Below are positions 3,825 to 50,285 of a stretch of DNA of 64,000 nucleotides, in pieces; position 1 is the first letter of the stretch; the number at the start of each line of letters is the position of its first letter. This DNA comes from Escherichia phage mogra. The notes under the pieces are model-generated. The model was not told the origin of the DNA. It saw nothing but the letters and a program-made list of their open reading frames with translations, and ran no database searches. A program made the position numbers and the translations under genes. The stretch lies in sequence record MN850579.1, one strand, 5' to 3'.

Positions 3825-6038
3825 ATGATTATTGAAACGGCTAAAGAAACGATTATTGGTTCAGGCGGTAAGAGCACAGCATTCACTATTCAAGGCAATA
3901 GCAAAGTTTATAAGATTTTGTCTAATGACCTTTATACAAACAAAGAATTGGCTTGTGTACGTGAATTAATCACAAACTGTATCGATGGACAAATTCTTAA
4001 CGGTTGCACTGATAAGTTTATTGTTCAGGCTCCAGGTCGTTTGGACCCACGTTTTGTAGTTCGAGACTTTGGTCCTGGTATGAGTGATTTCACCATTCGA
4101 GGTAATGACGAAGAGCCAGGAATCTATAACTCATATTTTGCTTCAACTAAAACATCGAGTAACGATTTCATTGGTGGATTCGGACTCGGCTCTAAAGCTC
4201 CACTAGCATATACCGATACGTTTAACCTTACGTCTTATCACAACGGTGAAGTTCGTGGTTACGTAATCTACCAAGATGACACGGGTCCACAAATTAAGCC
4301 GACCTTTGTAGATAAGATGGGTCCTGATGACCGGACCGGCGTTGAAGTAGTTGTGCCTGTTAACCCAGAAGATTTTGAAAAGTTCGCATCTGAAATTGCA
4401 TATGTTATGCGTCCTCTAGGTGATATTGCAGAAGTTCGTGGTGTTAAAGATATTAAATACTTCCCTGAATTTGACGATGTATATTTGGCCAAGGAAGCTC
4501 CATGGGGTGAACGCGGTAATATCATGGCTGTTTACGGTGGTATTGTATATCCAATCGGAAGTGTTATTAAAGAACAAACATGGATGATGACACGATGCAC
4601 TACAGCTTATATTAAATTCCCTATGGGTGAACTAGATGTAGCCCCGTCTCGTGAAGCATTGTCATTTGATAAACGTACAGTAGCAAATATCCATAAACGT
4701 GTTGCAGAAATTGATGCAAAATTATTTGCTGAAGATTCTAAGAAATGGATTGATTGTAAATACCCACGTCATGTGTTCCGTGAAATTGATTCTCTTGGCT
4801 ATACCGCTCGTAAATACATGGAAAAGGCCGGGTCTAATATTGAATCACTGAAATACTCTAAAGAACAACTAACTTATTCTGAGTTGTACAAACGTTTTAA
4901 AATGGGGCCTGAGTGGTGTAATCTTGGTGTAGTATACGATATCGTTGAATCCCCTCGTCTTCGTCGTATTCGTGAAAGCGGTAGCTCAACGGCAACCATT
5001 TCAATTAACAGTCTGATTGGCATTAACATTAAAAATGTTGAAATTGTTATTGACGACGTTAATGGACGCGTTCCATTAATGCGAGCTCTTAATTCAATTG
5101 AAATGTCTAAAGACGAGGTTAAATTAACTGGTAAAGTTCCACGCGGTTTTGGTAAAAGTGTACTATTCGTTGACCCTACAGACGAAGATGCAATGAAACT
5201 TCTGGAACGCCTTAAAGTTATCTTTGATGGCGACAACATTAACATGTACAAGACTTCAGAGCTTTTACAAATCGTTAAGCCATGGATTGAAGTCAGGAAA
5301 CGGACTAATGAGCCTCGTCCTAAATCGCCAAGTGCTCATCGATTCTTTAAGAATGAAAATGACGTTTGGGTATCAGAAGACCTCTTTATTCCGGCAAGTG
5401 AAGCAGATGAAATCCAAGGTTATGCTATAGTTCGTAATCGTTCTAATGCTGAATGTCTTGACTCAGATAAAGGTTGGTTGAACTATGACTCCAATTTCTT
5501 GACCCGTATTGCTGATTTGTCAGGTATTAAAGAGTTCACTGTAGTTCGTCCACAGATTGCTAAGAAAGTTCGTAAACTTGGTGAAGTAGAATGCTTGTTC
5601 GAAAAATCAATTAATGACTATATTACGCTAATCGATAAAGTGGATTATGATGAGTATGTATCACCAAGTCGTAGAGCACAGCCCTATCTAAACCATATTA
5701 CTCGTAATGAAGAGCTTAACTTCCTTAGTAAGTATTTTAGCTCTAAGAACAAAGAAATCAGTAAAGATTTTGCAAAACTTTCAACAGTAAATAATCGTTG
5801 GGGTTGGAATCGATTCGCAGGTGCTACTAATACAGATCTGAATAAGAAGTTAGAATTGTGTGCTAAAATTTTCGATAAGCTTAAAGATAATGCTTACGAT
5901 AATGATGATAAAATGGTTATTGAATTCGAAACCAATTATCATATTGTGTCAGACTACATGGGACGACGTGGTACTCTTTCCAAAGAACAGGTCGCTCAAA
6001 TCGTTAAATTCATGAAGGCCGTGGAAGCGGCCAAATAA
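3825..6038 (+). CDS. rIIA: rIIA membrane-associated protector from prophage-induced early lysis (737 aa)
   Basis: N-terminus MIIETAKETIIGSGGKSTAFTIQGNSKVYKILSNDLYTNKELACVRELITNCIDGQ matches recalled T4 rIIA (GHKL-ATPase-like N-domain); size about 725 aa in T4; synteny with rIIB. Confidence 0.9.
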   Translation: MIIETAKETIIGSGGKSTAFTIQGNSKVYKILSNDLYTNKELACVRELITNCIDGQILNGCTDKFIVQAPGRLDPRFVVRDFGPGMSDFTIRGNDEEPGIYNSYFASTKTSSNDFIGGFGLGSKAPLAYTDTFNLTSYHNGEVRGYVIYQDDTGPQIKPTFVDKMGPDDRTGVEVVVPVNPEDFEKFASEIAYVMRPLGDIAEVRGVKDIKYFPEFDDVYLAKEAPWGERGNIMAVYGGIVYPIGSVIKEQTWMMTRCTTAYIKFPMGELDVAPSREALSFDKRTVANIHKRVAEIDAKLFAEDSKKWIDCKYPRHVFREIDSLGYTARKYMEKAGSNIESLKYSKEQLTYSELYKRFKMGPEWCNLGVVYDIVESPRLRRIRESGSSTATISINSLIGINIKNVEIVIDDVNGRVPLMRALNSIEMSKDEVKLTGKVPRGFGKSVLFVDPTDEDAMKLLERLKVIFDGDNINMYKTSELLQIVKPWIEVRKRTNEPRPKSPSAHRFFKNENDVWVSEDLFIPASEADEIQGYAIVRNRSNAECLDSDKGWLNYDSNFLTRIADLSGIKEFTVVRPQIAKKVRKLGEVECLFEKSINDYITLIDKVDYDEYVSPSRRAQPYLNHITRNEELNFLSKYFSSKNKEISKDFAKLSTVNNRWGWNRFAGATNTDLNKKLELCAKIFDKLKDNAYDNDDKMVIEFETNYHIVSDYMGRRGTLSKEQVAQIVKFMKAVEAAK

Positions 6039-6979: not shown

Positions 6980-7002
6980 GGGGACTTCGGTCCCCTTTTT
7001 TT
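6980..7002 (+). terminator. intrinsic terminator (GGGGACTTCGGTCCCC + T7)
   Basis: Perfect UUCG-tetraloop hairpin 6980-6995 followed by TTTTTTT, 6 nt after the rIIB stop. Confidence 0.7.
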
Positions 7003-7304: not shown

Positions 7305-7797
7305 GTTTTTGACTAGCGAAATGAAGGTTAAGATTGCTGATACTGCTCGGTACTCGTTGAAACAAGATCCAGGTCAAATAAAAGAAGACGTTGTTCGACG
7401 TTGTAAGGTTGCAGTCTTTGCAGAGTATGTAGTAGCAAATTGGCTAGACGGATATGTTAATAAAGGTATTGAAGATGTAGAAGACCCGTACACGTATGCA
7501 TGGGACGTGTTAGCTCATCCTAAGTACTGTGGTCTACGCGTAGAAGTAAAGACCCATCAGATGGATTCGAAATGGATTTCGGTTACCACAGGATACAGTG
7601 GTGATTATCCGGGTGGTAATGGAATCAATATAGGGCCCTTCTTGAATCATCGAGTCGCAGATTGCATTATTATATTAGATGTCAAAGAAACCTCACCTGA
7701 CGTCTTCTCTTATTCTATAAAGTTCGTGGGAGACCATGAAGACCTAAAGAAAATCGTCCGCAAGAGCAACTACAACGGATGGTATCTTCATCTTTAA
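7240..7797 (+). CDS. hypothetical protein (185 aa from ATG 7240), possible PD-(D/E)xK-type nuclease; positional candidate for DenB-like endonuclease
   Basis: Three in-frame ATGs (7177, 7240, 7321); 7240 has a GAGGT RBS and gives 185 aa (T4 DenB recalled as 185 aa). ...AWDVLAHPKYCGLRVEVKT... fits a D-x(n)-E-x-K pattern. Lies between rIIB and ndd as denB does in T4. Start and function are uncertain. Confidence 0.3.
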   Translation: MVKTNLGLLRLKSLPTFILSNEFLTSEMKVKIADTARYSLKQDPGQIKEDVVRRCKVAVFAEYVVANWLDGYVNKGIEDVEDPYTYAWDVLAHPKYCGLRVEVKTHQMDSKWISVTTGYSGDYPGGNGINIGPFLNHRVADCIIILDVKETSPDVFSYSIKFVGDHEDLKKIVRKSNYNGWYLHL

Positions 7798-7809
7798 TTT
7801 CATAAAAGT

Positions 7810-7846
7810 GTTTACAACTAAGTAGGACTATGTTATAGTAGTCCTA
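7810..7846 (+). promoter_or_regulatory. T4-type early promoter with -10 region inside an 8-bp stem-loop
   Basis: GTTTACA -35-like (7810-7816), TATAGT-like -10, embedded in the dyad TAGGACTA(7823-7830)/TAGTCCTA(7839-7846); AGAGGA RBS and ATG at 7866 follow. Confidence 0.6.
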
Positions 7847-7865
7847 TCTAAAAGAGGATAACATC

Positions 7866-8321: not shown

Positions 8322-8359
8322 GTTTACAACAAGGTAGGATTATGGTATAGTAGTCCTAC
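8322..8359 (+). promoter_or_regulatory. T4-type early promoter with dyad symmetry
   Basis: GTTTACA (8322-8328) plus TATAGT-like -10; dyad GTAGGA(8334-8339)/TCCTAC(8354-8359); near-copy of the 7810 element. Confidence 0.55.
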
Positions 8360-8379
8360 TGAAACATGAGGAACACAAA

Positions 8380-8582: not shown

Positions 8583-8618
8583 TTGTACAAACTCTTGAGA
8601 GCAGAGTATAATGCTCTC
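8583..8618 (+). promoter_or_regulatory. T4-type early promoter (ndd) with TATAAT inside a 7-bp stem-loop
   Basis: TTGTACA -35-like (8583-8589), TATAAT at 8607-8612, dyad GAGAGCA(8597-8603)/TGCTCTC(8612-8618); ndd ATG at 8657. Confidence 0.6.
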
Positions 8619-8656
8619 ATGGATTACAAAAACATTAATCAATTGAGGAAATTAGC

Positions 8657-10868: not shown

Positions 10869-10889
10869 GTGCATTTTTCTCACAAAACA

Positions 10890-10918
10890 GTTTACATGTG
10901 CTTCAAACATGATATTAT
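10890..10918 (+). promoter_or_regulatory. T4-type early promoter for motA
   Basis: GTTTACA at 10890-10896 and TATTAT at 10913-10918; motA ATG at 10958 preceded by a GGAGAAA RBS. Confidence 0.55.
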
Positions 10919-10957
10919 AGACCTATCAAAACAAAACAACCAAATTGGAGAAACAAA

Positions 10958-11608
10958 ATGTCTAAAGTTACTTACATCATCAAAGCTTCTGAAAACGCTC
11001 TGAATGAAAAAACTGCTGCAATAATGGTTTATATCATTAAGAACAACTTCACCACCGCTGCCAATGTCCGTGAAGCCCTGGAAGCGGAATACAATGCATC
11101 GGTTGTTAACTCTAACATTGGTGTATTGATTAAGAAAGGTTTAGTCGAAAAATCCGGTGATGGACTTGTAGCAACAGGCGAAGCAATGGATATTATCCAA
11201 AAAGCTGCAGACCTATTTGCTCAAGAAAATGCTCCAGAACTTCTTCAGAAACGTAACACCAGAAAAGCACGTGGAGTTACTCCTGAAATGCATGAATTAG
11301 CAAACTTTGTTTTTGAAAATATTAAAGATAAAGTTGAAGTTAAAGAAATTGGTGAAAACCGTAGTAACTTAGAAGTTCGATTTGCAAAACGAGTTCTAGG
11401 TATTCGTCAGATCGAAATTCGTCGAGATGGCGCTCTTAGAATCTTTGCATACAACATGTCAGAAACTGAATCAAAGCTGTTTACTTCTCTTGAAAATGAT
11501 GTTAAGATTAAGATCGGTGGTAAATATACTTACATTGACTTCCCTAATGTGTCCAAAGAAATCATTACCCTTGTAACTAATGTACTGTCAGGAATACATA
11601 ATGAATAA
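10958..11608 (+). CDS. motA: MotA activator of middle-mode transcription (216 aa)
   Basis: N-terminus MSKVTYIIKAS... and ...VVNSNIGVLIKKGLVEKSGDGL... match recalled T4 MotA (211 aa); adjacent to gene 52 as in T4. Confidence 0.85.
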   Translation: MSKVTYIIKASENALNEKTAAIMVYIIKNNFTTAANVREALEAEYNASVVNSNIGVLIKKGLVEKSGDGLVATGEAMDIIQKAADLFAQENAPELLQKRNTRKARGVTPEMHELANFVFENIKDKVEVKEIGENRSNLEVRFAKRVLGIRQIEIRRDGALRIFAYNMSETESKLFTSLENDVKIKIGGKYTYIDFPNVSKEIITLVTNVLSGIHNE

Positions 11609-13269: not shown

Positions 13270-13420
13270 TCTTCAGAACGTAGTAGAGGCCGAACGTGAG
13301 CGTGAGGCTTTAGTCTATAATGAACTATTAGTTCCATTCTTGGCCTTACACTCGTATGAACAGGAAGACTACATTGATTACGTTAAAAGCGTAGAAAAAG
13401 CCGTTTACAATCAACACTGA
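13259..13420 (+). CDS. small hypothetical protein (53 aa from ATG 13259)
   Basis: AGGAACAAT RBS plus ATG at 13259; the longer track ORF (13205) would overlap the upstream gene by 65 nt. Confidence 0.35.
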   Translation: MSHNLQNVVEAEREREALVYNELLVPFLALHSYEQEDYIDYVKSVEKAVYNQH

Positions 13421-13466
13421 TAATGGTACTATATCCATATCAACTAAGTGGAATGAATAAAACGTT

Positions 13467-27228: not shown

Positions 27229-27250
27229 GGGAGACTTCGGTCTCCCTTTT
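27229..27250 (+). terminator. intrinsic terminator (GGGAGACTTCGGTCTCCC + T4)
   Basis: 18-nt UUCG-loop hairpin 27229-27246 followed by TTTT, 6 nt after the gene 32 stop. Confidence 0.7.
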
Positions 27251-27277
27251 GAGTATCTGTAAATTGCCGAAAAAGTT

Positions 27278-27335: not shown

Positions 27336-27728
27336 ATGGAAATCGGAAAATCTTATATCATTAACCCTTTATTTAAAGATGACTTTGTTCAAGAAGCACC
27401 ACATAATAACGCTAAGATGTTAAAATTGATTGAACTCCACGGGCCTAGTTTTGTTGTAAACGGAATGGAACCTGATTATGATAGCGATACGTCAAACGTA
27501 GTAAGTGTAACTATGGAAGATGGTACTGTATGTTCTGCCGGTGGTGAAATTGAAACTTATTTTGAGATTTATCCTGACGAGTTCAAATACTTTACTGAGG
27601 TAGATTTAGTAAAGCCTCAACCTACTAACGAAGGTATAACTTTAGGCGTAACAAAAATCCATTGTATCGTAGATGAAACTAACGTCGACGAAATCATCAA
27701 ACTTTTGCAAAAAACTTTTAAAAAGTAG
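27336..27728 (+). CDS. hypothetical protein (130 aa)
   Basis: ATG ORF with GAGGAAA RBS between gene 32 and frd (frd.x region in T4); no motif. Confidence 0.5.
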   Translation: MEIGKSYIINPLFKDDFVQEAPHNNAKMLKLIELHGPSFVVNGMEPDYDSDTSNVVSVTMEDGTVCSAGGEIETYFEIYPDEFKYFTEVDLVKPQPTNEGITLGVTKIHCIVDETNVDEIIKLLQKTFKK

Positions 27729-27766
27729 TTTATAACAAGATAGGGCTATGTTATAATAGCCCTATC
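27728..27766 (+). promoter_or_regulatory. early promoter embedded in a 10-bp stem-loop (PeSL-like)
   Basis: GTTTAT at 27728-27733, TATAAT at 27752-27757 in the loop of the perfect dyad GATAGGGCTA(27739-27748)/TAGCCCTATC(27757-27766). Confidence 0.6.
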
Positions 27767-27790
27767 AAATCAAAAGTGAAGGAGAATAAA

Positions 27791-28039
27791 ATGAGATTAC
27801 AACGCCAGAGCATCAAAGATTCTGAAGTTAGAGGTAAATGGTACTTCAACATCGTTGGTAAAGACGCTGAACTCCTTGAACAAGCTGAAGAAGCTTTACG
27901 TGAAATGGGTTGGAACGAAGAATGTGATGGATGTCCACTCTACGAAGATGGTGAAAGTGCAGGATTCTGGATTCACCACTCTGATGTTGAATCGTTTAAA
28001 GCTGATTGGAAAGTTGTTAAGAAAAATCTGAGGAAATAA
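27791..28039 (+). CDS. hypothetical protein (82 aa from ATG 27791)
   Basis: AAGGAG RBS then ATG at 27791; the track start 27776 is a GTG within the RBS. Confidence 0.45.
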   Translation: MRLQRQSIKDSEVRGKWYFNIVGKDAELLEQAEEALREMGWNEECDGCPLYEDGESAGFWIHHSDVESFKADWKVVKKNLRK

Positions 28040-28041
28040 TT

Positions 28042-28290
28042 ATGAATGTTGTTGTTGAATACTCTCAAGGCGCTGATGTCGGATATGAAGTTTATACTTC
28101 AGTTAATTTAGACCATCCGGATTTGGCCGAATTCATTGGTGACGCATTTGATTTGTCTGGGCGATACACAACAAAACCTCGCGTTTGTGTTATAATATTT
28201 GACCCGACCGATGGCTGTCAAATCCAGACTGATTTGGTTTCTTCTAAATCACAAATCCAAAAAGTTATTAAAGGACTTAAAAATGCTTAA
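28042..28290 (+). CDS. hypothetical protein (82 aa)
   Basis: ORF whose stop overlaps the frd start region. Confidence 0.45.
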   Translation: MNVVVEYSQGADVGYEVYTSVNLDHPDLAEFIGDAFDLSGRYTTKPRVCVIIFDPTDGCQIQTDLVSSKSQIQKVIKGLKNA

Positions 28291-29982: not shown

Positions 29983-30013
29983 CGCTTCAGTTTAAAAGTG
30001 TATAATAAATTAA

Positions 30014-30035
30014 CGGGATAAATACTATCCCGTTT
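30014..30035 (+). other. stem-loop (CGGGATA/TATCCCG) upstream of nrdA
   Basis: 7-bp perfect dyad with 5-nt loop followed by TTT; possible weak terminator or RNA-stability element. Confidence 0.35.
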
Positions 30036-30069: not shown

Positions 30070-32325
30070 ATGCAAGTAACTAAGAGCAGTGGTGTATCCC
30101 AAAATTTTGATGCACAGAAAATTATTCAAGTCTTAACTTGGCAATGTGAAGGAACACAAATTGACCCATATGAATTGTATGAAGAAATTAAGACCCATCT
30201 TGTCGACGGGATGAGCACCAAAGATATCCAGAAGATTTGTATTAAAGTTGCAGCTAACTCGATTTCTGTCGAAGAACCTGATTATCAGTATGTCGCCGCC
30301 AAAGGGCTAATGTTTGCACTTCGTAAAGATGTATATGGGCAGTTTGAACCGCCTGCTTTTATCGACCATATTTCTTATTGTGTTAATGAAGGCAAATATG
30401 ACCCTGAGCTGTTGTCTCAATATTCAGCAGAAGAAATCATTTATCTCGATTCACAGATTAAACATGAACGAGACTTTGACCTGACTTATGCTGGTGCTAT
30501 GCAGCTTAAAGAAAAATATCTAGTTAAAGATAAAACAACTGGGAAGATTTATGAAACTCCCCAGTTTGCTATCATGGCTATTGGCATGGCCTTACACCAA
30601 GACGAAACTCATGACCGTTTGAAACATATTATTCGTTTTTATAATGCCGTTTCTACTCATCAAGTTTCATTGCCAACCCCAATTATGGCAGGTGCTCGTA
30701 CTCCAACTCGCCAGTTCTCTAGTTGTGTAGTTATTGAAGCCGGTGATTCGTTAAAATCTATTAACAAAACTTCAGCATCAATTATTGAATATATTTCTAA
30801 ACGAGCTGGTATTGGTATCAACGTTGGTATGCTTCGTGCAGAAGGTTCTAAGATCGGTATGGGTGAAGTTCGACATACGGGTGTTATTCCATTCTGGAAA
30901 CATTTCCAAACTGCAGTAAAATCTTGTTCTCAAGGTGGTATTCGTGGTGGTGCTGCTACAGCGTATTATCCGATGTGGCACTTAGAAGTAGAGAACCTAT
31001 TAGTTCTGAAAAATAACAAAGGCGTGGATGAAAACCGTATTCGACATATGGACTACGGAATTCAGATTAATGACCTTATGATGGAACGCCTTGGTAAAAA
31101 TGATTATATTACTTTATTTAGCCCTCACGAAATGTCAGGCGAACTATACTACTCGTTCTTTGAAGATCAAGATAAATTCCGTGAGCTTTATGAGAAAGCT
31201 GAAAAAGACCCAACAATCAGAAAGAAAAGAATCAAAGCACTAGAACTCTTTGAATTGTTCATGACTGAACGCTCTGGTACTGCTCGAATTTATCCGCAGT
31301 TTGTTGATAACACGAATAACTACACTCCGTTTATTCGTGAAAAAGCTCCAATTCGTCAGAGTAACTTATGTTGTGAAATCGCTATTCCAACTAATGATGT
31401 GAATGGTCCTGATGCTGAAATTGGTTTATGCACATTATCTGCTTTTGTATTAGATAAATTTGATTGGCAAGACCAAGATAAAATTAATGAACTTGCTGAA
31501 GTACAAGTACGTGCACTTGATAACCTGTTAGACTATCAAGATTATCCAGTTCCAGAAGCTTTAAAAGCTAAAAAGCGTCGTAATCTTGGTGTTGGTGTTA
31601 CGAACTATGCTGCATGGTTAGCTTCTAACTTTGCTTCATATGAAGACGCTAACGATTTGACTCATGAATTGTTTGAGAGATTGCAATATGGCCTTATCAA
31701 AGCTTCAATCAAACTCGCCAAAGAAAAAGGACGTTGCGAGTATTATTCAGACACTAAATGGTCTCGAGGCGAATTACCTATCGACTGGTACAATAAAAAA
31801 ATTGACCAAATCGCAGCCCCGAACTACGTCTGTGACTGGGAAGAACTTCGAGCTGAACTCAAAGAACATGGAATTCGTAACTCAACGTTGTCTGCACTCA
31901 TGCCTTGTGAGTCAAGCAGTCAAGTATCAAACTCTACAAACGGGATTGAGCCACCGCGTGGTCCAGTAAGTATTAAAGAATCTAAAGAAGGCAACTTCCG
32001 ACAGGTTGTTCCTAATATCGAACATAACATGAGTCTTTACGACTACGCGTGGAAACTTGCTAAGAAAGGTAATAAACCTTATTTGACCCAAGTTGCTATC
32101 ATGTTGAAATGGGTGTGCCAATCTGCTTCTGCTAATACTTACTATGACCCTGCAGTATTTGAGAAAGGTAAAGTGCCAATGTCAGTAATGCTTGACGATC
32201 TGCTTTACTTCTGGTACTTTGGCGGAAAAAACCTCTACTATCATAACACTCGTGATGGGTCTGGTACAGACGACTATGAATTAGAAACACCTAAAGCCGA
32301 TGATTGTGCAGCGTGTAAATTGTAA
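30070..32325 (+). CDS. nrdA: ribonucleotide reductase large subunit (751 aa)
   Basis: Class Ia NrdA features (N-terminal ATP-cone, ...NLCCEIA... active-site cysteines, C-terminal CxxC); T4 NrdA 754 aa as recalled. Confidence 0.92.
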   Translation: MQVTKSSGVSQNFDAQKIIQVLTWQCEGTQIDPYELYEEIKTHLVDGMSTKDIQKICIKVAANSISVEEPDYQYVAAKGLMFALRKDVYGQFEPPAFIDHISYCVNEGKYDPELLSQYSAEEIIYLDSQIKHERDFDLTYAGAMQLKEKYLVKDKTTGKIYETPQFAIMAIGMALHQDETHDRLKHIIRFYNAVSTHQVSLPTPIMAGARTPTRQFSSCVVIEAGDSLKSINKTSASIIEYISKRAGIGINVGMLRAEGSKIGMGEVRHTGVIPFWKHFQTAVKSCSQGGIRGGAATAYYPMWHLEVENLLVLKNNKGVDENRIRHMDYGIQINDLMMERLGKNDYITLFSPHEMSGELYYSFFEDQDKFRELYEKAEKDPTIRKKRIKALELFELFMTERSGTARIYPQFVDNTNNYTPFIREKAPIRQSNLCCEIAIPTNDVNGPDAEIGLCTLSAFVLDKFDWQDQDKINELAEVQVRALDNLLDYQDYPVPEALKAKKRRNLGVGVTNYAAWLASNFASYEDANDLTHELFERLQYGLIKASIKLAKEKGRCEYYSDTKWSRGELPIDWYNKKIDQIAAPNYVCDWEELRAELKEHGIRNSTLSALMPCESSSQVSNSTNGIEPPRGPVSIKESKEGNFRQVVPNIEHNMSLYDYAWKLAKKGNKPYLTQVAIMLKWVCQSASANTYYDPAVFEKGKVPMSVMLDDLLYFWYFGGKNLYYHNTRDGSGTDDYELETPKADDCAACKL

Positions 32326-33023
32326 TGAATTATCAAAAAATCTATAACGACCTAATTTCCCGAGCTCAGGCTCGGGAACCTTTATCCGAATATAAAGAGA
32401 CACATCATATAGTCCCTAAATGCATGGGAGGTTCTGATGATAAAGAAAATTTAGTTGAATTAACAGCTAGAGAACATTTTATAGCGCATGCTATTTTATC
32501 AAAGATTTATCCGGTAAAATCTGTTATATTCGCATTTTTCATGATGTGCAATATGAAAGGAACTAAGAAACGTCATTATAAAGTTCATTCTAAAATATAT
32601 GCCCATGCAAAGAAGTTAAATTCGCAATTTCGCAAAGGTACGGTCATTTCTGAAGAAACGAGACTGAAAATATCAAAAGCGAAAACAGGTCTGCGTTTAA
32701 CAGAAGAAACCAAACACAAAATATCGGCGGCAACCAAAGGAAGGGCTAAAAGCGAAGAAACTAAGAAAAAGATGAGAAAGCCTAAAACTGAAGAAGCTAA
32801 AAAGAATATAGCTGCTGCTAAAGTTGGCGTGCTTAATCCGATGTATGGTACAATTTCTCCGACAAGAGATGTTCCTCATACTAAAGAAACTCGTGATTTG
32901 ATTTCTTTGAGAACTAAACAAGGAGCAGAGTATCCACCTTGCCCGCATTGTGGCAAGAAAGTTAATAAAGGCAATGCTCTAAGATGGCATTATGATAAAT
33001 GTAAATTTAAGGATTCTAAATGA
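32325..33023 (+). CDS. mobE: HNH homing endonuclease with NUMOD3-like repeats and C-terminal Zn-ribbon (232 aa), at the T4 mobE locus
   Basis: HNH core ...ETHHIVPKCMGGSDDKENLVELTAREHFIAH...; repeated EET(R/K)xKIS modules; CPHCGKKVNKGNALRWHYDKC; inserted between nrdA and nrdB with start/stop overlaps (TAATG, ATGA). Confidence 0.75.
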   Translation: MNYQKIYNDLISRAQAREPLSEYKETHHIVPKCMGGSDDKENLVELTAREHFIAHAILSKIYPVKSVIFAFFMMCNMKGTKKRHYKVHSKIYAHAKKLNSQFRKGTVISEETRLKISKAKTGLRLTEETKHKISAATKGRAKSEETKKKMRKPKTEEAKKNIAAAKVGVLNPMYGTISPTRDVPHTKETRDLISLRTKQGAEYPPCPHCGKKVNKGNALRWHYDKCKFKDSK

Positions 33024-34163: not shown

Positions 34164-34177
34164 GGGACTTCGGTCCC
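34164..34177 (+). other. UUCG-loop hairpin (GGGACTTCGGTCCC) between nrdB and denA
   Basis: Perfect hairpin 5 nt after the nrdB stop; followed by ACTTTATT (poor T-run), so more likely an RNA-stabilising or attenuating element than a strong terminator. Confidence 0.45.
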
Positions 34178-34185
34178 ACTTTATT

Positions 34186-34596
34186 ATGAAAGATATCGCC
34201 GCCGAATATTCCTTTATTAAATATACAGAATTGGAGCTATTAGAAGATGCAACAATTAAAACAGTTGATGTCCCTAATAAGAAAAATGTCATATATGCTA
34301 TTGCTATAGATGACGAACTTGTGTATATTGGTAAAACCAAGAATTTAAAGAAACGCATTAACTATTATCGAACAGCCATAAATCGAAAAGACCAGACTTC
34401 AGATTCAAGAAAATCACTTATGATTTTGGATGCCTTAATGCAAGGCAAAAAGGTTGAATTCTGGGCCCGCCAATGTTTTGACCTTTCAGTCACCAACGAA
34501 CTTGGTTCAATGACCATCGCAACAATGGACCTTGAAGAACCGCTTTTTATCAAAAAGTTCAACCCGCCTTGGAATATCCAACATAAGAAAAAGTAG
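34186..34596 (+). CDS. denA: endonuclease II, GIY-YIG family (136 aa)
   Basis: MKDIAAEYSFIKYTELEL...VIYAIAIDDELVYIGKTKNLKKRINYYR...FIKKFNPPWNIQHKKK matches recalled T4 DenA (136 aa) including the GIY-YIG motif. Confidence 0.88.
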   Translation: MKDIAAEYSFIKYTELELLEDATIKTVDVPNKKNVIYAIAIDDELVYIGKTKNLKKRINYYRTAINRKDQTSDSRKSLMILDALMQGKKVEFWARQCFDLSVTNELGSMTIATMDLEEPLFIKKFNPPWNIQHKKK

Positions 34597-34625
34597 TTTA
34601 CATACCACAAGGATTGTGGTACAAT
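34596..34625 (+). promoter_or_regulatory. T4-type early promoter for rnlA with spacer dyad
   Basis: GTTTAC at 34596-34601, TACAAT at 34620-34625, dyad CCACAA/TTGTGG in the spacer. Confidence 0.55.
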
Positions 34626-35778: not shown

Positions 35779-35808
35779 GTTTACAAACACCAAGGATGGT
35801 GTTACTAT
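35779..35808 (+). promoter_or_regulatory. T4-type early promoter with spacer dyad
   Basis: GTTTAC at 35779-35784, TACTAT at 35803-35808, dyad ACACC/GGTGT; the element lies inside the 5' extension of the track ORF 35776. Confidence 0.55.
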
Positions 35809-36970: not shown

Positions 36971-37185
36971 CTAAAGAACAGTATGAATACATTAAAGGGC
37001 TTATCTATGAATCTGAAATGGCGGCTATGATTTATGGGCGTCAGATTCAACGATTAGAATCTTTGCCTCCGACTAATGACCGCTTGTTAGTTCAGTCTCG
37101 TGCTAATCTGAAAAATGAATATCAGAATAAGTGGGCAGTAGCGACTAAAGCTCTTCATGAGTATATTGAATCTTTAGTAAAATAG
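36961..37185 (+). CDS. hypothetical protein (74 aa)
   Basis: ORF overlapping the o-spanin stop; no motif. Confidence 0.45.
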   Translation: MPMTKEQYEYIKGLIYESEMAAMIYGRQIQRLESLPPTNDRLLVQSRANLKNEYQNKWAVATKALHEYIESLVK

Positions 37186-37219
37186 TTTACAAACTCTCGG
37201 GAGCAGAGTATAATGCTCC
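37185..37219 (+). promoter_or_regulatory. early promoter with TATAAT inside a stem-loop (near-copy of the 8583 element)
   Basis: GTTTACAAACTCT...GGAGCAGAGTATAATGCTCC: GTTTAC at 37185-37190, TATAAT at 37209-37214, dyad GGAGCA/TGCTCC. Confidence 0.6.
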
Positions 37220-37242
37220 TATGGATAATTGAGGAAATCTAA

Positions 37243-37541
37243 ATGAAAACATTACTAGAGAATTACATCAAACGGTCGGATGAGTATATTGATATCTGTC
37301 GTGGAATGTCACTTGACAATTGTGACGAAGATGCAGCAAAGGCACTAGATGAAGCAGGTAAAGCTCTTCGTAAAGCTGCTAAAGAAAAAGGGTTGGATTT
37401 GCAACAACTCAAAAGTCATATGATTAAATTTATTTCTTCAAACGTTAGAAGCACGTCAATTAATAAAAACGTTGCTGAAATTAATAAAGACCGGCGCGAG
37501 CATAACATTCGTATTCTTGAAACTTTCTTAGGAATAAAATA

Positions 37542-37542
<1 letters not shown>
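37243..37542 (+). CDS. hypothetical protein (99 aa)
   Basis: ATG with GAGGAAA RBS downstream of an early promoter. Confidence 0.5.
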
Positions 37543-38628
<1,086 letters not shown>

Positions 38629-39310: not shown

Positions 39311-39349
39311 GTTTACAACATGGTGGAGTTGTGATACTATAACTCTACC
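39311..39349 (+). promoter_or_regulatory. early promoter with dyad symmetry
   Basis: GTTTAC at 39311-39316, TACTAT at 39335-39340, imperfect 9-bp dyad GGTGGAGTT/AACTCTACC. Confidence 0.55.
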
Positions 39350-39368
39350 AACAAATGAGGAAATAGAA

Positions 39369-39605: not shown

Positions 39606-39725
39606 TGAGAGCTATCTCATTACTATCAAGAATGGTCATAAATCTGAGCACTACCAACTTAGCCTGTCTAATCCGGTTAAAGGTATTGTTGAATCAGAAT
39701 CTGTTTATATCTCCTAAGGATTGTT

Positions 39726-40718
39726 ATGTTACCTGTCGTCGGAAAACTTATTTCTCCAAAAGAACTGGCTGAGATTATTCCTTTATCGGAAGCTTACGCA
39801 TCACAAGTGGCTTCTCATCGCGAACAAGTTAATTCGATTATGAACGGTGAAGACCCACGCAAACTTATTGTTGTAGGTCCTTGTTCAATTCATGACCCTA
39901 TTGCTGCTGTTGAATACGGCAAACGTCTGGCTGAACTTCAAACTAGTCTTCCTAATGTTCTGTTAGTGATGCGCGTTTATTTTGAAAAGCCTCGAACTAC
40001 CGTAGGTTGGAAAGGTCTTGTAAATGATCCATATCTTGACGGAAGTTTTGATATGAACCACGGTCTTATAGTTGCACGAACATTGTGTCGTAAACTTCTA
40101 CGTATGGGACTTCCATTAGCAACTGAAGTATTAGACCCATTCACGATTAAGTATCTTTCTGGTATTTTCTCATGGGTTGCTATTGGCGCCCGTACGACTG
40201 AAAGTCAGACACATCGTGAAATTGCTTCAGGTCTACCGATGTGCGTAGGCTTCAAGAACGCAACCAATGGTTCTATTAAAGTAGCTACAGACGCGATGTA
40301 TAGTGCCGCCTGGCCTCATCGGTATATGGGTATGGACGTCGATGGTACTGTAGGCATTGTTGAAGCTGAAGGTAATCAGAATACGCATATCGTATTGCGT
40401 GGCGGGACCAACGGCCCGAACTATCATTCTTCTGATATTCAAGAAGCTTCTAACAAAGCAAGTGCAGTAGGTCTGAATCATTATGTAATGGTTGACTGTA
40501 GCCATGCAAACGCTGCTGGGCATTATAGCAATCAAATTGGTATTGGTAAAAATTTAGCAGCTAATGATTTGGTCAAAGGAATTATGATAGAATCATTCCT
40601 ACATGAAGGAAATCAAAAAATTTCTGATAATATGTCCTATGGCGTTTCCATTACCGATGCGTGCATCAGTTGGGAACAAACTAAAGAGCTGTTAACTTAT
40701 ATTAATAAGGTTCAATAA
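39726..40718 (+). CDS. 3-deoxy-D-arabino-heptulosonate-7-phosphate (DAHP) synthase, class I AroG/AroF/AroH-like (330 aa)
   Basis: Hallmark motifs ...LIVVGPCSIHDP..., ...MRVYFEKPRTTVGWKGLVNDP..., ...WVAIGARTTESQTHREIASGLPMCVGFKN..., ...ESFLHEGNQ...SITDACISWE... align with recalled E. coli AroG; about 20 residues shorter at the N-terminus. Confidence 0.8.
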   Translation: MLPVVGKLISPKELAEIIPLSEAYASQVASHREQVNSIMNGEDPRKLIVVGPCSIHDPIAAVEYGKRLAELQTSLPNVLLVMRVYFEKPRTTVGWKGLVNDPYLDGSFDMNHGLIVARTLCRKLLRMGLPLATEVLDPFTIKYLSGIFSWVAIGARTTESQTHREIASGLPMCVGFKNATNGSIKVATDAMYSAAWPHRYMGMDVDGTVGIVEAEGNQNTHIVLRGGTNGPNYHSSDIQEASNKASAVGLNHYVMVDCSHANAAGHYSNQIGIGKNLAANDLVKGIMIESFLHEGNQKISDNMSYGVSITDACISWEQTKELLTYINKVQ

Positions 40719-42111: not shown

Positions 42112-42360
42112 ATGATTAAACAATTACAACACGCTCTTGAACTGCAACGCAACGCATGGAATAACGGTCACGAAAACTATGGCGCGTCGATTGATGTTGA
42201 AGCCGAAGCACTGGAAATCCTGCGTTATTTCAAACATCTGAACCCGGTACAGGCAGCTTTGGCCTCTGAACTGGAAGCAAAAGATGAACTGAAATATGCT
42301 AAGCCTTTGGCTTCTGCAGCTCGTAAAGCAGTACGTCATTTTGTTATTACCCTTAAATAA
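42112..42360 (+). CDS. hypothetical protein (82 aa); rIII-like by size and position
   Basis: 82 aa, same length as T4 RIII as recalled, located next to gene 31 and downstream of a late promoter; not verified at sequence level. Confidence 0.45.
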   Translation: MIKQLQHALELQRNAWNNGHENYGASIDVEAEALEILRYFKHLNPVQAALASELEAKDELKYAKPLASAARKAVRHFVITLK

Positions 42361-42469
42361 GTTTTAGGTGATTCGCTACCTTAGTGCGGCTAGAAAATCG
42401 AGGAGCCGTCGAACTGTCTGATTAATGATTTGTGAATCATTATAGTTTTAAGACCCCGACAGTTTTACG

Positions 42470-42498
42470 GTGTACCTCTTGAATGTATTTTGTACTAT
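42470..42498 (+). promoter_or_regulatory. putative early promoter inside the long non-coding region
   Basis: GTGTAC at 42470-42475, 17-bp spacer, TACTAT at 42493-42498; would give a leader of about 150 nt before the 59-aa ORF. Confidence 0.4.
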
Positions 42499-42834: not shown

Positions 42835-42839
42835 TTTTA

Positions 42840-42861
42840 GGGAGACTTCGGTCTCCCTTTT
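42840..42861 (+). terminator. intrinsic terminator (GGGAGACTTCGGTCTCCC + T-run)
   Basis: Third copy of the 18-nt UUCG hairpin (42840-42857) followed by TTTTGTG. Confidence 0.7.
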
Positions 42862-42894
42862 GTGCGTTTAGGGCAGAAAAAGTTTAAAAAAGAT

Positions 42895-42923
42895 GTTTAC
42901 TCTCCTGTAGGATGTGTTACTAT
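42895..42923 (+). promoter_or_regulatory. T4-type early promoter
   Basis: GTTTAC at 42895-42900, 17-bp spacer, TACTAT at 42918-42923; ATG at 42966 with GGAGAA RBS. Confidence 0.55.
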
Positions 42924-42965
42924 AGACTTGTACCATCTAATCAATAAAACAACCTGGAGAACAAA

Positions 42966-43338: not shown

Positions 43339-43378
43339 GTTTACTTTGGTACAGGTTATGTTATTATAGACCTGTACC
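43339..43378 (+). promoter_or_regulatory. early promoter embedded in an 8-bp stem-loop
   Basis: GTTTAC at 43339-43344, TATTAT at 43362-43367 within the loop of the dyad GGTACAGG(43348-43355)/CCTGTACC(43371-43378). Confidence 0.55.
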
Positions 43379-43408
43379 AACAAACAACTTAAACATCTGG
43401 AGAATAAA

Positions 43409-48168: not shown

Positions 48169-50256
48169 ATGTCTGAACAATTAAATGAAGTGTTTGAATC
48201 TGAAGGCAGTCTTCCTGTCGTCAATTTGAACCCTAAAGCTAAAGTTCCACAAGTCTGGAAAATTGGTGATATCGATACAAATATTGTAGTTCGTTTATTC
48301 TCTTACCTTTCCGAAGGCGACGCTGTAAAACAAGTTAAACTTGGCGACAAATACGCTCATGTTGTTATTATGAGTCTGTCTGAAAAGGGTAATCTAGCTG
48401 AATTGAAAAATGGCCTTGGTCCTGCTCCTATTGATGCAATCAACACCATTTTCAATACAGTGTATGAACAGGTTAAAGCTCTTCGTATGGATGCAGTTCT
48501 GTTCCGATTCCCTACCAAGAAATTGAAAGGACGTGGACAACAACTTCAAACTCTTCTTGCTCGTTTAGTTTCTACTAAAACCGGTGGTCGTTTTAAAGTA
48601 TTGTCGGCAATGTATCAATTCACAGGTAAACACACCTATGTGATGATGGTTCGTAAAAATGCCAACATTGAAGATATTAAAGGCATCCCTAACATTAACA
48701 CAGAGTTGTACACGAAAGTAGATTCTGATGTTGGCGAAGTTTATGTGAGTAAAAAGACCGGCGAAAAGGTCACCAAAGAAACGGCTATCGCTGGTTCTAT
48801 TGCTGCTGTAGAAGAAAAACGTAAAGATAAGCCTGTTATTGCTCGTACTAAAATTTCTCGTCGTGCTATTGCAGCAAGTCAATCTTTAGAAGCTGACCGC
48901 CAAGAAGGTGAGTTATTCCAGAAATACGAAAATTCTGCTAAAGAAGTTAGTGGCCCAGCTACAGCCGAATTACTTCCTGAAGCATATGAAATCGTACTAG
49001 CCCAAGCATCATCCACAGCAAAAGGCACTTTAGTTGCTGATATCGAAAATAAGATTTATAATCGTATTGATGAATCCTTTAGATTTGCTGATGAAGTTTC
49101 TTATGGTAGTGTTATTAAGCCAACTTTAGAAAAGTTTGCTAAGAAAATTAAAACTGAAAAAACAACATCTGTTAAAGCATTAGCTGCTTTTGTTGAAGCT
49201 GCAAACGAAATTGCGGACTCTATTAAAGACGAATGGTTTGAAGATTTTAGACGTGATAATTTCCAACTGGCCGATGATGTTTTAGCTGAAGTATCTGAAA
49301 AAACTTGGAAACAACGTAAATCAGCGTTCTTGTCTAATGTGATGTATACTTATGCACGAGAATCGGCTAGAGGCACCTTTAATATAACAATGAATCGGGA
49401 CCCTAAACAATACTCTGTTGCTGAAAAACGAGCTATTCGCGAATATGCCTCTTCTGCGTATACAGATATCAATAATATGTTGTTAGGTCGTTATAAACCA
49501 GATTTTTACGATGTTGCAGATGAAGATGAAGTTAAACGCGCTATTGATGGTCTTGATTCGGCGTTTTTAAATGGAGACCGTTTACCTGAAGGACTAACGT
49601 TATATAGAGCTCAGTCTATCAGAATGCCTATTTACGAAGCAATGGTTAAAAATAAGGTATTCTATTTCAGAAACTATGTTTCCACTTCACTAGCTCCTAT
49701 TATTTTCGGTGGGTTTAAAGAGAACGTTGCCCTTGGACTTGCTCCTGAAGAAGTTCGCAAAGAGCTTAACATTGACAATAACGACGAAGGTGTTACTATT
49801 TCTCCTAGTCAAGTAAGAACAGCTATGCATGCACCAGAACAAATCCGTGTTAACGTTGGATGGGCTATTGATGGCGCTCATAAAGTTAACGTGATTTATC
49901 CAGGACAGTTGAGTAATCACCCTAATGAGCAAGAAATTATTTTGCCTAGAGGCATTCTCTTACAGATAAATAAAATTACAGATGCGTCATCTGACACTGG
50001 TGCAGGTTTAGAATCCAACCTTAAATTTATTCAAGCTGAAGTCATGTCCTCGGACCAGTTGGACGAAGCTGTCATTTACGATGGTGATGTTCTCATGGAA
50101 ACAGGCGAGGTAGTTGCTATGACTGGTGAAATCGAATCAGATGAGCCGGTATCTTTTGCCTCATTTGTAGAAAAAACTAGTGCACCTAAAGGTTTGAAAT
50201 TGTTAGCATCTTTAATGGATTTAGAATCAGTTCCGTTTAAATTTGTCCAAGGATAG
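48169..50256 (+). CDS. alt: Alt ADP-ribosyltransferase (virion-packaged; modifies host RNA polymerase), 695 aa
   Basis: Multiple blocks match recalled T4 Alt (682 aa), e.g. ...YFRNYVSTSL..., ...VNVIYPG..., ...NEQEIILPRG..., ...INKITDAS..., C-terminus ...VPFKFVQG. Confidence 0.88.
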   Translation: MSEQLNEVFESEGSLPVVNLNPKAKVPQVWKIGDIDTNIVVRLFSYLSEGDAVKQVKLGDKYAHVVIMSLSEKGNLAELKNGLGPAPIDAINTIFNTVYEQVKALRMDAVLFRFPTKKLKGRGQQLQTLLARLVSTKTGGRFKVLSAMYQFTGKHTYVMMVRKNANIEDIKGIPNINTELYTKVDSDVGEVYVSKKTGEKVTKETAIAGSIAAVEEKRKDKPVIARTKISRRAIAASQSLEADRQEGELFQKYENSAKEVSGPATAELLPEAYEIVLAQASSTAKGTLVADIENKIYNRIDESFRFADEVSYGSVIKPTLEKFAKKIKTEKTTSVKALAAFVEAANEIADSIKDEWFEDFRRDNFQLADDVLAEVSEKTWKQRKSAFLSNVMYTYARESARGTFNITMNRDPKQYSVAEKRAIREYASSAYTDINNMLLGRYKPDFYDVADEDEVKRAIDGLDSAFLNGDRLPEGLTLYRAQSIRMPIYEAMVKNKVFYFRNYVSTSLAPIIFGGFKENVALGLAPEEVRKELNIDNNDEGVTISPSQVRTAMHAPEQIRVNVGWAIDGAHKVNVIYPGQLSNHPNEQEIILPRGILLQINKITDASSDTGAGLESNLKFIQAEVMSSDQLDEAVIYDGDVLMETGEVVAMTGEIESDEPVSFASFVEKTSAPKGLKLLASLMDLESVPFKFVQG

Positions 50257-50285
50257 TTTACAAACACATGGATGTGTGATACTAT
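50256..50285 (+). promoter_or_regulatory. T4-type early promoter with spacer dyad
   Basis: GTTTAC at 50256-50261, TACTAT at 50280-50285, dyad ACACAT/ATGTGT; ATG at 50315 with GAGGAAAA RBS. Confidence 0.55.

Follow-up and report, generated by a model that had tools for sequence, protein, structure and literature searches.

Early promoters embedded in hairpins in a Mosigvirus genome: PeSL-type cassettes whose stems may also mark the end of the preceding message

Promoter-early stem-loops (PeSLs), in which a stem-loop accompanies an early promoter, have been described in T4-type phages. In RB49, PeSL promoters are highly active, the stem-loop of PeSL211/210 cut lacZ read-through as much as rrnB T1, and mini-circle crossovers were mapped in or beside the stem-loop, according to Arbiol et al. 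(2010; PMC2839356). The T4/PST elements are given by Comeau et al. (2014; PMC4122927) as a promoter TTTACW-N17-TAYWAT with a stem AGNA-loop-TCNT, and 'PeSL-like' elements of internal-protein loci are credited, through secondhand citation, to Repoila et al. (1994). A promoter also lies inside a hairpin in the leaders of T4 gene e, soc and I-TevI, where the transcript lacks the 5' arm (PMC3014915). Here we analyze a 64 kb stretch of Escherichia phage mogra (record MN850579.1; all 64,000 nucleotides (nt) are referred to as the window), T4-like coliphage DNA of the genus Mosigvirus, in which many early promoters carry embedded hairpins, as does the element at 27728-27766, which lies in the 62 nt that separate the frd.2 homolog (27336-27728) from the frd.1 homolog (27791-28039). 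Judged by their sequence, these elements are PeSL-type cassettes, a kind already described and now met as a new instance in a Mosigvirus. The initial annotation had likened these sites to the PeSLs, and the comparison was accurate, agreeing with both Arbiol 2010 and Comeau 2014.

All the sequence-level PeSL features defined in PMC2839356 are present in the window. The elements share with the RB49/phi1 PeSLs described there an AT-rich upstream region with a stop codon, a sigma70-type promoter, and a ribosome-binding site followed by ATG; a stem-loop placed either between -35 and -10 or around -10; and tolerated G-T pairs and many copies beside small open reading frames (ORFs) of unknown function; an association with insertions or deletions (indels) between close relatives may be shared too. 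They differ in three ways: the -35 is GTTTAC, of T4 type, in the window versus TTGACA in RB49/phi1; the stems are of mixed sequence versus polyG/polyC; and the window copies resemble one another less. The measurements of termination, promoter strength and mini-circles come solely from RB49/phi1 and a spacer-type stem. As a positive control, RB49 was scanned with the same code, which found both layouts (for example GGGGATATagcataATATCCCC around the -10); the -10-enclosing copies of RB49 are also followed by U-poor sequence. The T4/PST elements of PMC4122927 have the same promoter consensus, and the AGGA...TCCT of the window's TAGGACTA/TAGTCCTA stem fits AGNA-loop-TCNT; consensus and stem motif are likewise shared with the T-even PeSLs that include the 'PeSL-like' elements of internal-protein loci, and the ndd-denB region, a shuffling hot spot in that paper, is common to the window. 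A figure legend there places the T4/PST stems 'just upstream' of the promoter, whereas the stems of the window and of the T4 orthologs examined enclose the -10. The gene e, soc and I-TevI leaders resemble the window in that the read-through transcript has the full hairpin and the locally started one does not; they differ in that their hairpin hides the ribosome-binding site and their internal promoter is late, whereas in the window the binding site lies 12-25 nt past the stem. RB69-type phages are not mentioned in either PeSL paper (PMC2839356, PMC4122927), nor are hairpins in the RB69 promoter survey (Nolan et al. 2006).

The ten sites proposed in the initial annotation are all present. Each has a -35 of GTTTAC, GTTTAT or TTGTAC, a spacer of 17-18 nt and a -10 of the form TAnnnT, often after TG, and each is followed 20-36 nt past the predicted start by a ribosome-binding site and ATG. 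The stop codon of the upstream gene overlaps the -35 or precedes it by 0-13 nt, and intergenic gaps with an embedded hairpin measure 55-76 nt, of which the leader takes 20-36 nt. In seven elements, a stem of 6-13 bp encloses the extended -10, its arms lying at about -29 to -17, in the spacer, and at -7 to about +6; elsewhere, the whole stem is inside the spacer. Several arms are longer than first annotated: 27739-27766 has 11 perfect pairs around a 6-nt loop, 43346-43380 has 11 perfect pairs, and 39321-39350 has 13 pairs with G-U allowed. The description of the -10 as sitting in the loop holds for the extended -10 (TGnTAnnn), which forms the loop, but not for the last one or two bases of the hexamer, which belong to the 3' arm. 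The 8334 and 39322 sites each have an apparent mismatch; on the + strand, both prove to be G·T. The elements are as follows (MFE, minimum free energy; z, z score of the fold):

27728-27766, + strand: promoter-hairpin of the frd.1 homolog (ATG 27791); -35 GTTTAT (27728-27733), which overlaps the stop codon (TAG) of the frd.2 homolog; -10 TATAAT at 27752-27757; stem 27739-27749/27756-27766 (11 bp, loop GTTATA); predicted start about 27764; sense-RNA MFE -19.0, z = -7.5; T4 ortholog with predicted start about 146107.
7810-7847, + strand: promoter-hairpin of an 87-residue ORF (ATG 7866); -35 at 7810-7815; -10 TATAGT at 7834-7839; stem TAGGACTA/TAGTCCTA at 7823-7830/7839-7846, 10 pairs with G-U (7822-7847); z = -4.4; member of repeat family D4; T4 homology stops at 7816.
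8322-8360, + strand: promoter-hairpin of a 66-residue ORF (ATG 8380); -35 at 8322-8327; -10 TATAGT at 8346-8351; stem 8333-8343/8350-8360, including a U·G wobble (GGATTA/TAGTCC); z = -4.1 as sense RNA and -1.0 as antisense; over 54 nt, 83% identity to the copy at 7793-7846.
8583-8619, + strand: promoter-hairpin of ndd (ATG 8657); -35-like TTGTAC at 8583-8588; -10 TATAAT at 8607-8612; stem TGAGAGCA/TGCTCTCA at 8596-8603/8612-8619; sense-RNA z = -3.3; paralog of the 37185 element.
37185-37220, + strand: promoter-hairpin of a 99-residue ORF (ATG 37243); -35 (37185-37190) overlaps the stop codon (TAG) upstream; -10 TATAAT at 37209-37214; stem 37199-37205/37214-37220; z = -3.2; annotated as a promoter in NBG1.
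39311-39350, + strand: promoter-hairpin of a 78-residue cd.2-like ORF (ATG 39369); -35 at 39311-39316; -10 TACTAT at 39335-39340; stem 39321-39333/39338-39350 (13 pairs, three of them G-U); z = -5.2 as sense RNA and -1.4 as antisense; orthologous to the T4 early promoter Pe133295, with the hairpin shared and the wobble positions different.
43339-43380, + strand: promoter-hairpin of gene 30.7 (ATG 43409); -35 at 43339-43344; -10 TATTAT at 43362-43367; stem TTGGTACAGGT/ACCTGTACCAA at 43346-43356/43370-43380; z = -5.2; conserved across 13 distinct ortholog sequences and in T4, where the start is predicted at about 129883.
34596-34625, + strand: rnlA early promoter with spacer dyad; -35 at 34596-34601; -10 TACAAT at 34620-34625; stem TACCACAA/TTGTGGTA at 34603-34610/34614-34621, loop GGA; z = -3.0.
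35779-35808, + strand: alc early promoter with spacer dyad; -35 at 35779-35784; -10 TACTAT at 35803-35808; stem AACACCA/TGGTGTT at 35786-35792/35797-35803; z = -1.5.
50256-50285, + strand: early promoter 3' of alt; palindrome ACACATGGATGTGT (50264-50277; 6 bp, 2-nt loop) in the spacer; -10 TACTAT at 50280-50285; fold z = 0.0.

The hairpins are enriched at promoters beyond chance. In 13 promoters chosen by rules blind to dyads, the longest perfect stem averaged 6.15 bp versus 3.93 ± 0.25 in shuffles that preserve the -10 (0 of 2000 reached the observed mean), stems of at least 6 bp occurred at seven promoters versus 0.72 expected from shuffles, and the mean MFE was -9.7 versus -3.1 ± 0.5 kcal/mol in -10-preserving shuffles. 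Compared with 344 non-promoter intergenic segments of equal AT content, the MFE was -9.8 at promoters versus -4.5, and values of -12 or below were reached by 6 of the 13 promoters versus 1.5% of the segments (Mann-Whitney p = 8e-4). The initial annotation had named as a refutation the finding of dyads no more frequent at promoters than in AT-rich intergenic sequence; the enrichment is present. Of all perfect hairpins in the 64 kb, the two longest, at 11 bp each, lie within promoters, and the seven -10-enclosing hairpins fold as sense RNA with z = -3.2 to -7.5. The spacer dyads are weaker: that at 34603-34621 is solid, that at 35786-35803 marginal, and that at 50264-50277 not significant alone; orthologs of the last promoter hold better dyads, such as CCACAaggaTGTGG and GCACaaggaaGTGC. 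Embedded hairpins occur at 8 of 14 promoters in the window, 18 of 45 in RB69 and 4 of 16 in T4, and are thus commoner in the window and in RB69 than in T4. A scan of the whole window with Rfam returned zero family matches.

Conservation was followed in 30 loci from viral contigs together with NBG1, T4, RB69 and RB49. At the frd.1 promoter, all 13 orthologs have the hairpin, with at least five arm sequences (GATAGGGCTA/TAGCCCTATC, CAGGGTAAT/ATTACCCTG, AGGCTAT/ATAGCCT, ATGGGGCTAT/ATGGTCCCAT and AGGGTAGTAGT/ACTATTACCCT) and three registers relative to the -10. The orthologs indicate that what is retained here is a hairpin over the -10 rather than any one sequence. Because the stems lie in three registers, a single structure line for all frd.1-promoter orthologs was impossible, and pairs were counted instead in 29 same-register hairpin promoters from several loci and phages. 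All nine pairs had two-sided changes, with 44 such cells versus 11.9 ± 3.6; the covariation score was 0.583 versus 0.287 (0 of 500 shuffles); and sliding the partners lowered pairing from 95% to 33-51%. The path of one pair is visible, from A-U (GGACTA/TAGTCC) through G·U (GGGCTA/TAGTCC, RB69 69240) to G-C (GGGCTA/TAGCCC, in the window and at RB69 145286). Three elements have T4 orthologs with a hairpin, at predicted T4 starts 146107, 133295 and 129883.

Four observations concern individual promoters. In T4 rnlA, the same dyad as in the window (CCACA-N5-TGTGG; CCACAtggagTGTGG) stands between a Mot box (TGCTT) and the -10, with no -35; the hairpin is retained while the promoter class switches from early in the window to middle in T4. 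At the frd.1 element of the window, TTATAACA (27730-27737, overlapping the -35) is complementary to TGTTATAA (27749-27756, the extended -10) in a pairing that excludes the main hairpin; it exists only since this copy has GTTTAT rather than GTTTAC, and is probably due to chance. A hydrophobic ORF of 22 codons, MFAPYIMAAVMLVCLYLLIKAC, separates frd.1 from the hairpin promoter in T4 (about 146030-146100, minus strand) and in two relatives, with similar ribosome-binding-site stretches on its two sides; the T4 feature table examined does not list this ORF, and it is missing from the window. Finally, the T4 record calls the 14 bp at 133300-133313 the 'inverted complement of previously reported sequence', correcting Pe133295. 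These 14 bp make up the loop of the T4 hairpin promoter that is orthologous to the 39311 element, and an inversion between its arms would look alike. An invertible-loop switch, considered because of this record, was dropped, as no ortholog has an inverted loop; an old sequencing error is the simpler reading and probably accounts for the discrepancy.

The mismatches within the stems bear on which molecule carries the hairpin. With G·T and A·C penalised equally in scoring, the internal mismatches of 91 distinct stems comprise 26 G·T versus 1 A·C on the sense strand. Counted as independent events, the ratio is about 15:1, or about 11:1 without the loop-proximal pairs made by promoter consensus bases. 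The background is 62:73 in shuffled promoter segments and 27:16 in an exhaustive enumeration of real sense-strand sequence, promoter hairpins included, whose shuffles give about 1.1-1.2:1. Another background, 64:22 from randomly sampled coding stretches and the first to be obtained, was dropped because the same stems were resampled and promoter hairpins were among them. The antisense folds of the 8328 and 39317 elements are no longer significant (z = -1.0 and -1.4). Selection confined to the sense strand is hard to reconcile with a cruciform, with a symmetric protein site or with an antisense terminator. RNA being the simplest form in which the sense strand is single, the hairpin would instead form in transcripts reading through from the upstream gene, which alone contain both arms; local transcripts, predicted to start where the 3' arm ends, would be without the hairpin. 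The rule used to place starts recovers the coordinate of the catalogued T4 promoter Pe133295. A hairpin that masks translation, of the T4 gene e type, was rejected because the unpaired probability from the ribosome-binding site to the AUG, compared between read-through and local RNA at 14 promoters, changed in no consistent direction.

Embedded hairpins and canonical terminators appear to exclude each other. Canonical terminators (GGGACUUCGGUCCC plus a U-run; family GGGACTTCGGTCCC, with a UUCG tetraloop and T-run) lie at 6981-7002, 27229-27252, 34164-34185 and 42839-42863, 3' of rIIB, gene 32, nrdB and the gene preceding 30.8. The promoters at 10890, 27278 and 42895 have a terminator 24-36 nt upstream, that of 10890 being a further copy (AAGGAGCTTCGGCTCCTT), and have no embedded hairpin; the 10890 promoter was not counted as a hairpin promoter because its 5-bp spacer dyad is broken in NBG1. 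The 23975 promoter, which has no co-directional upstream gene, also has no embedded hairpin. When a terminator was defined as a canonical hairpin plus T-run within 90 nt upstream of the promoter, embedded hairpins were found behind a terminator in none of the cases (0/3 in the window, 0/6 in RB69, 0/4 in T4) and elsewhere in 8/11, 18/39 and 4/12, respectively, giving 0/13 versus 30/62 for the three pooled (Fisher p = 0.001). The gaps measure 55-76 nt with an embedded hairpin versus 113-185 nt with a separate terminator. Both kinds are 3'-end hairpins of a transcription unit, seemingly used as alternatives; the canonical ones have UUCG and a U-run and stand 24-36 nt before a plain promoter, whereas the embedded ones have loops of 6-13 nt and no U-run.

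We favor, with moderate confidence, the reading that the hairpin is the 3'-end structure of the upstream unit and that the embedded promoter restarts transcription; that the promoters fire, that the hairpin acts at the RNA level and what it does there are inferred. A strong host-sigma70 early promoter would be packed into the 55-76-nt gap between two co-directional genes, the stem arms using promoter positions that lack base-specific sigma70 contact and either the extended -10 serving as the loop or the entire stem fitting within the spacer. The hairpin would form in RNA reading through from the upstream gene, where it would attenuate or pause read-through or block 3' exonucleases, standing in for a separate terminator. 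The embedded promoter would then restart transcription for the next gene, making each small gene cassette self-contained, and the repeated cassettes would give short homologies where genes are gained and lost. An RNA structure was among the functions suggested in the initial annotation, and the sense-strand G·U bias and the exclusivity with terminators lend it support.

Several points weigh against this reading. First, the -10-enclosing stems are followed by no U-tract: the next 8 nt contain a mean of 1.7 T (range 0-3), set against 31% T genome-wide, and the sequence there is A/C-rich and U-poor. Of the embedded hairpins, only 35786-35803 (tail ACTATGGTTT) is accepted by a terminator scan of the + strand. 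Second, the strand bias has p = 0.005-0.03 depending on the null and comes from about 12-16 independent events, and a transcription-linked mutation bias could contribute to the G·T excess. Third, the sequences used for covariation were pre-selected for pairing, although the outcome of this selection is itself far from random: it was passed by 27 of 157 unique promoter segments where, by our own estimate, well under one was expected. Fourth, the exclusivity could partly mirror two paralogous cassette families rather than independent events. Fifth, the majority of indels relative to NBG1 and RB69 are homing-endonuclease or tail-fibre events away from promoters. Finally, our search of the literature turned up no usable mapping of 5' or 3' transcript ends for the early regions of T4-type phages.

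The missing U-tract means that the -10-enclosing stems are not classical intrinsic terminators, defined as a G+C-rich hairpin plus U-run, and as such they were rejected. It also counts in favor of a different RNA role, in which the hairpin lets transcription continue and is a stability or processing element: once polymerase has read through, the downstream leader would be cleaved, for instance by RegB at the ribosome-binding-site GGAG or by RNase E, and the stem would guard the upstream cistron against 3' exonucleases. This account is equally compatible with the bias toward the sense strand and with the mutual exclusion of embedded and terminator hairpins. The strong RegB cleavage consensus, GGAGRAYARAA (PMC3014915), has 4 matches in the window versus 0.45 expected; three are at early-gene ribosome-binding sites (27781, 42956 and 43399), and those at 27781 and 43399 lie 15-19 nt 3' of the two longest hairpins. 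GAGGA-type ribosome-binding sites with no GGAG, however, are present at five of the seven elements that enclose the -10, and the RB49 reporter result was interpreted as termination in PMC2839356. We consider a stability or processing role possible but on the unlikely side.

The -10-enclosing hairpins might also be a distinct device rather than weak terminators, an undescribed, promoter-coupled way of ending the upstream message; we raise this tentatively and hold it to be rather improbable. With no U-tract and a position exactly over a very strong promoter, such a device would need a partner to stop read-through. The partner could be a polymerase at the embedded promoter, acting as a roadblock, or a cut at the RegB site 15-19 nt downstream.

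An equally doubtful proposal denies the dyads any RNA role: they would be carried passively in mobile promoter cassettes, or act as DNA homology or single-stranded DNA hairpins that favor recombination. Among the dispersed repeats in the window, the promoters are the principal ones (families D1, D3, D4, D5, D11 and D16; 60-83% identity over 32-54 nt), and RB69 has at least nine near-identical copies of TAGGACTA...TAGTCCTA. NBG1, 97% identical to the window, has an extra 71-residue ORF between two cassette copies (4627-4704 and 4949-5026 of the fetched NBG1 stretch) where the window has one chimeric copy (10889-10966). On this comparison, direct promoter repeats have recombined to give a clean deletion or insertion, with the topology of RB49 ORF192 as presented by Arbiol et al. 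(PMC2839356), where the RB49 mini-circle crossovers also map at or near the stem-loop. T4 homology breaks at 7816, 37178, 43339, 44479 and 50298, several of these at promoters; it restarts exactly at the -35 of the 30.7 element, and the block 37178-37731, a promoter with two small ORFs, is missing from T4. G·T is, moreover, the best-tolerated mismatch in single-stranded DNA as well. Against a role without RNA, recombination between direct repeats has no need of an inverted repeat, the arms vary among copies but remain complementary while the register shifts, and from hitchhiking one would expect neither a strand bias nor a lack of hairpins behind canonical terminators. Cassettes are also found at only one of about five indels relative to NBG1 and two of seven relative to RB69. 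The recombination-site role proposed in the initial annotation is thus borne out in part by one clean promoter-flanked indel and by several breakpoints at promoters, but not by most indels, which lie elsewhere; a part for the cassettes in gene shuffling remains plausible on these alignments.

In duplex DNA, the dyad would tune or switch the promoter, either through cruciform extrusion driven by supercoiling or as the site of a dimeric protein over the -10. The dyad is centred on the -10, and the 27739 stem, with 11 bp and a 6-nt loop, might extrude; Horwitz and Loeb are said to have described, in 1988, an engineered E. coli promoter regulated by cruciform extrusion. Most stems, at 6-8 bp with 8-13 nt loops, are unfavorable for extrusion. 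Such a mechanism needs both strands, yet mismatches are 26 G·T versus 1 A·C on one strand; the arm sequences differ among copies, which leaves no common protein site, and the register slides relative to the -10. We rejected the cruciform or operator reading on these grounds as very improbable. The initial suggestion that promoter strength is modulated through DNA structure is unsupported. Termination of antisense transcription, by a minus-strand stem followed by the T-rich complement of the -35 and upstream A-tract, was rejected as barely credible: although 27766-27739 ranks top on the minus strand in the terminator scan (tail TTGTTATAAA), sense G·U pairs become A·C mismatches there, two elements fold no better than shuffles as antisense RNA, the tails on the minus strand are not rich in T at the other elements, and no minus-strand genes are nearby.

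If the hairpin is the 3'-end structure of the upstream unit, as we favor, early genes of RB69-type phages would be annotated as self-contained cassettes in which a promoter doubles as the end signal of the preceding gene, the sharing would save about 40-100 nt per junction, and the hairpin-promoter junctions would be likely seams for gene gain and loss. In the available parts of the two PeSL papers we found neither compensatory conservation with register shifts, nor a G·U bias on the sense strand, nor mutual exclusion with canonical terminators. For the -10-enclosing class, which has no U-tract, the label 'terminator' may be wrong. The picture of T4 biology is unchanged; a known element is refined.

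Two further promoters on the + strand are related to these elements:

13403-13446, + strand: asiA early promoter, a possible eighth case unlisted in the initial annotation; a bulged stem GATA(A)TGG/CCATATC encloses the -10 TACTAT (13427-13432).
42895-42935, + strand: promoter of 30.8, a degraded relative; the sequence flanking it on the 3' side, TATAGACTTGTACC, is similar to the 3' arm in the 30.7 element, with no complementary 5' arm.

The asiA hairpin is weak (MFE -6.2), and variants of it occur in relatives; the 30.8 promoter has a canonical UUCG terminator upstream (42839-42858).

The nearest records to the window are vB_EcoM_G2469, NBG1 and JK42, at about 97% identity. The gene order is 39, rIIA/rIIB, ndd, motA, tail-fibre genes, 32, frd, td, nrdAB, rnlA, alc, pseT, cd, 30 and alt, in the orientation opposite to that usual for T4. 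A second ORF of 82 residues (28042-28290) lies immediately 3' of the frd.1 homolog and is missing in RB69. Just 5' of the nrdA ribosome-binding site is a 9-bp hairpin, AACGGGATAaatacTATCCCGTT (30012-30034), with no surrounding promoter and terminator-like on the minus strand only. Between nrdA and nrdB, an insert of about 700 bp (32319-33018) with a 232-residue ORF (32325-33023) is missing in NBG1 and RB69; its position is one where homing endonucleases occur in T4-like phages. The block 39620-40715 has a 330-residue ORF (39726-40718), a DAHP synthase according to the NBG1 annotation, and is missing at this place in RB69 and T4; the RB69 junction has a 19-nt overlap. A non-coding stretch of 135 nt 3' of rIII (42360-42495), present in T4 and deleted in NBG1, holds the hairpin TAATGATTtgtgAATCATTA (42423-42442).

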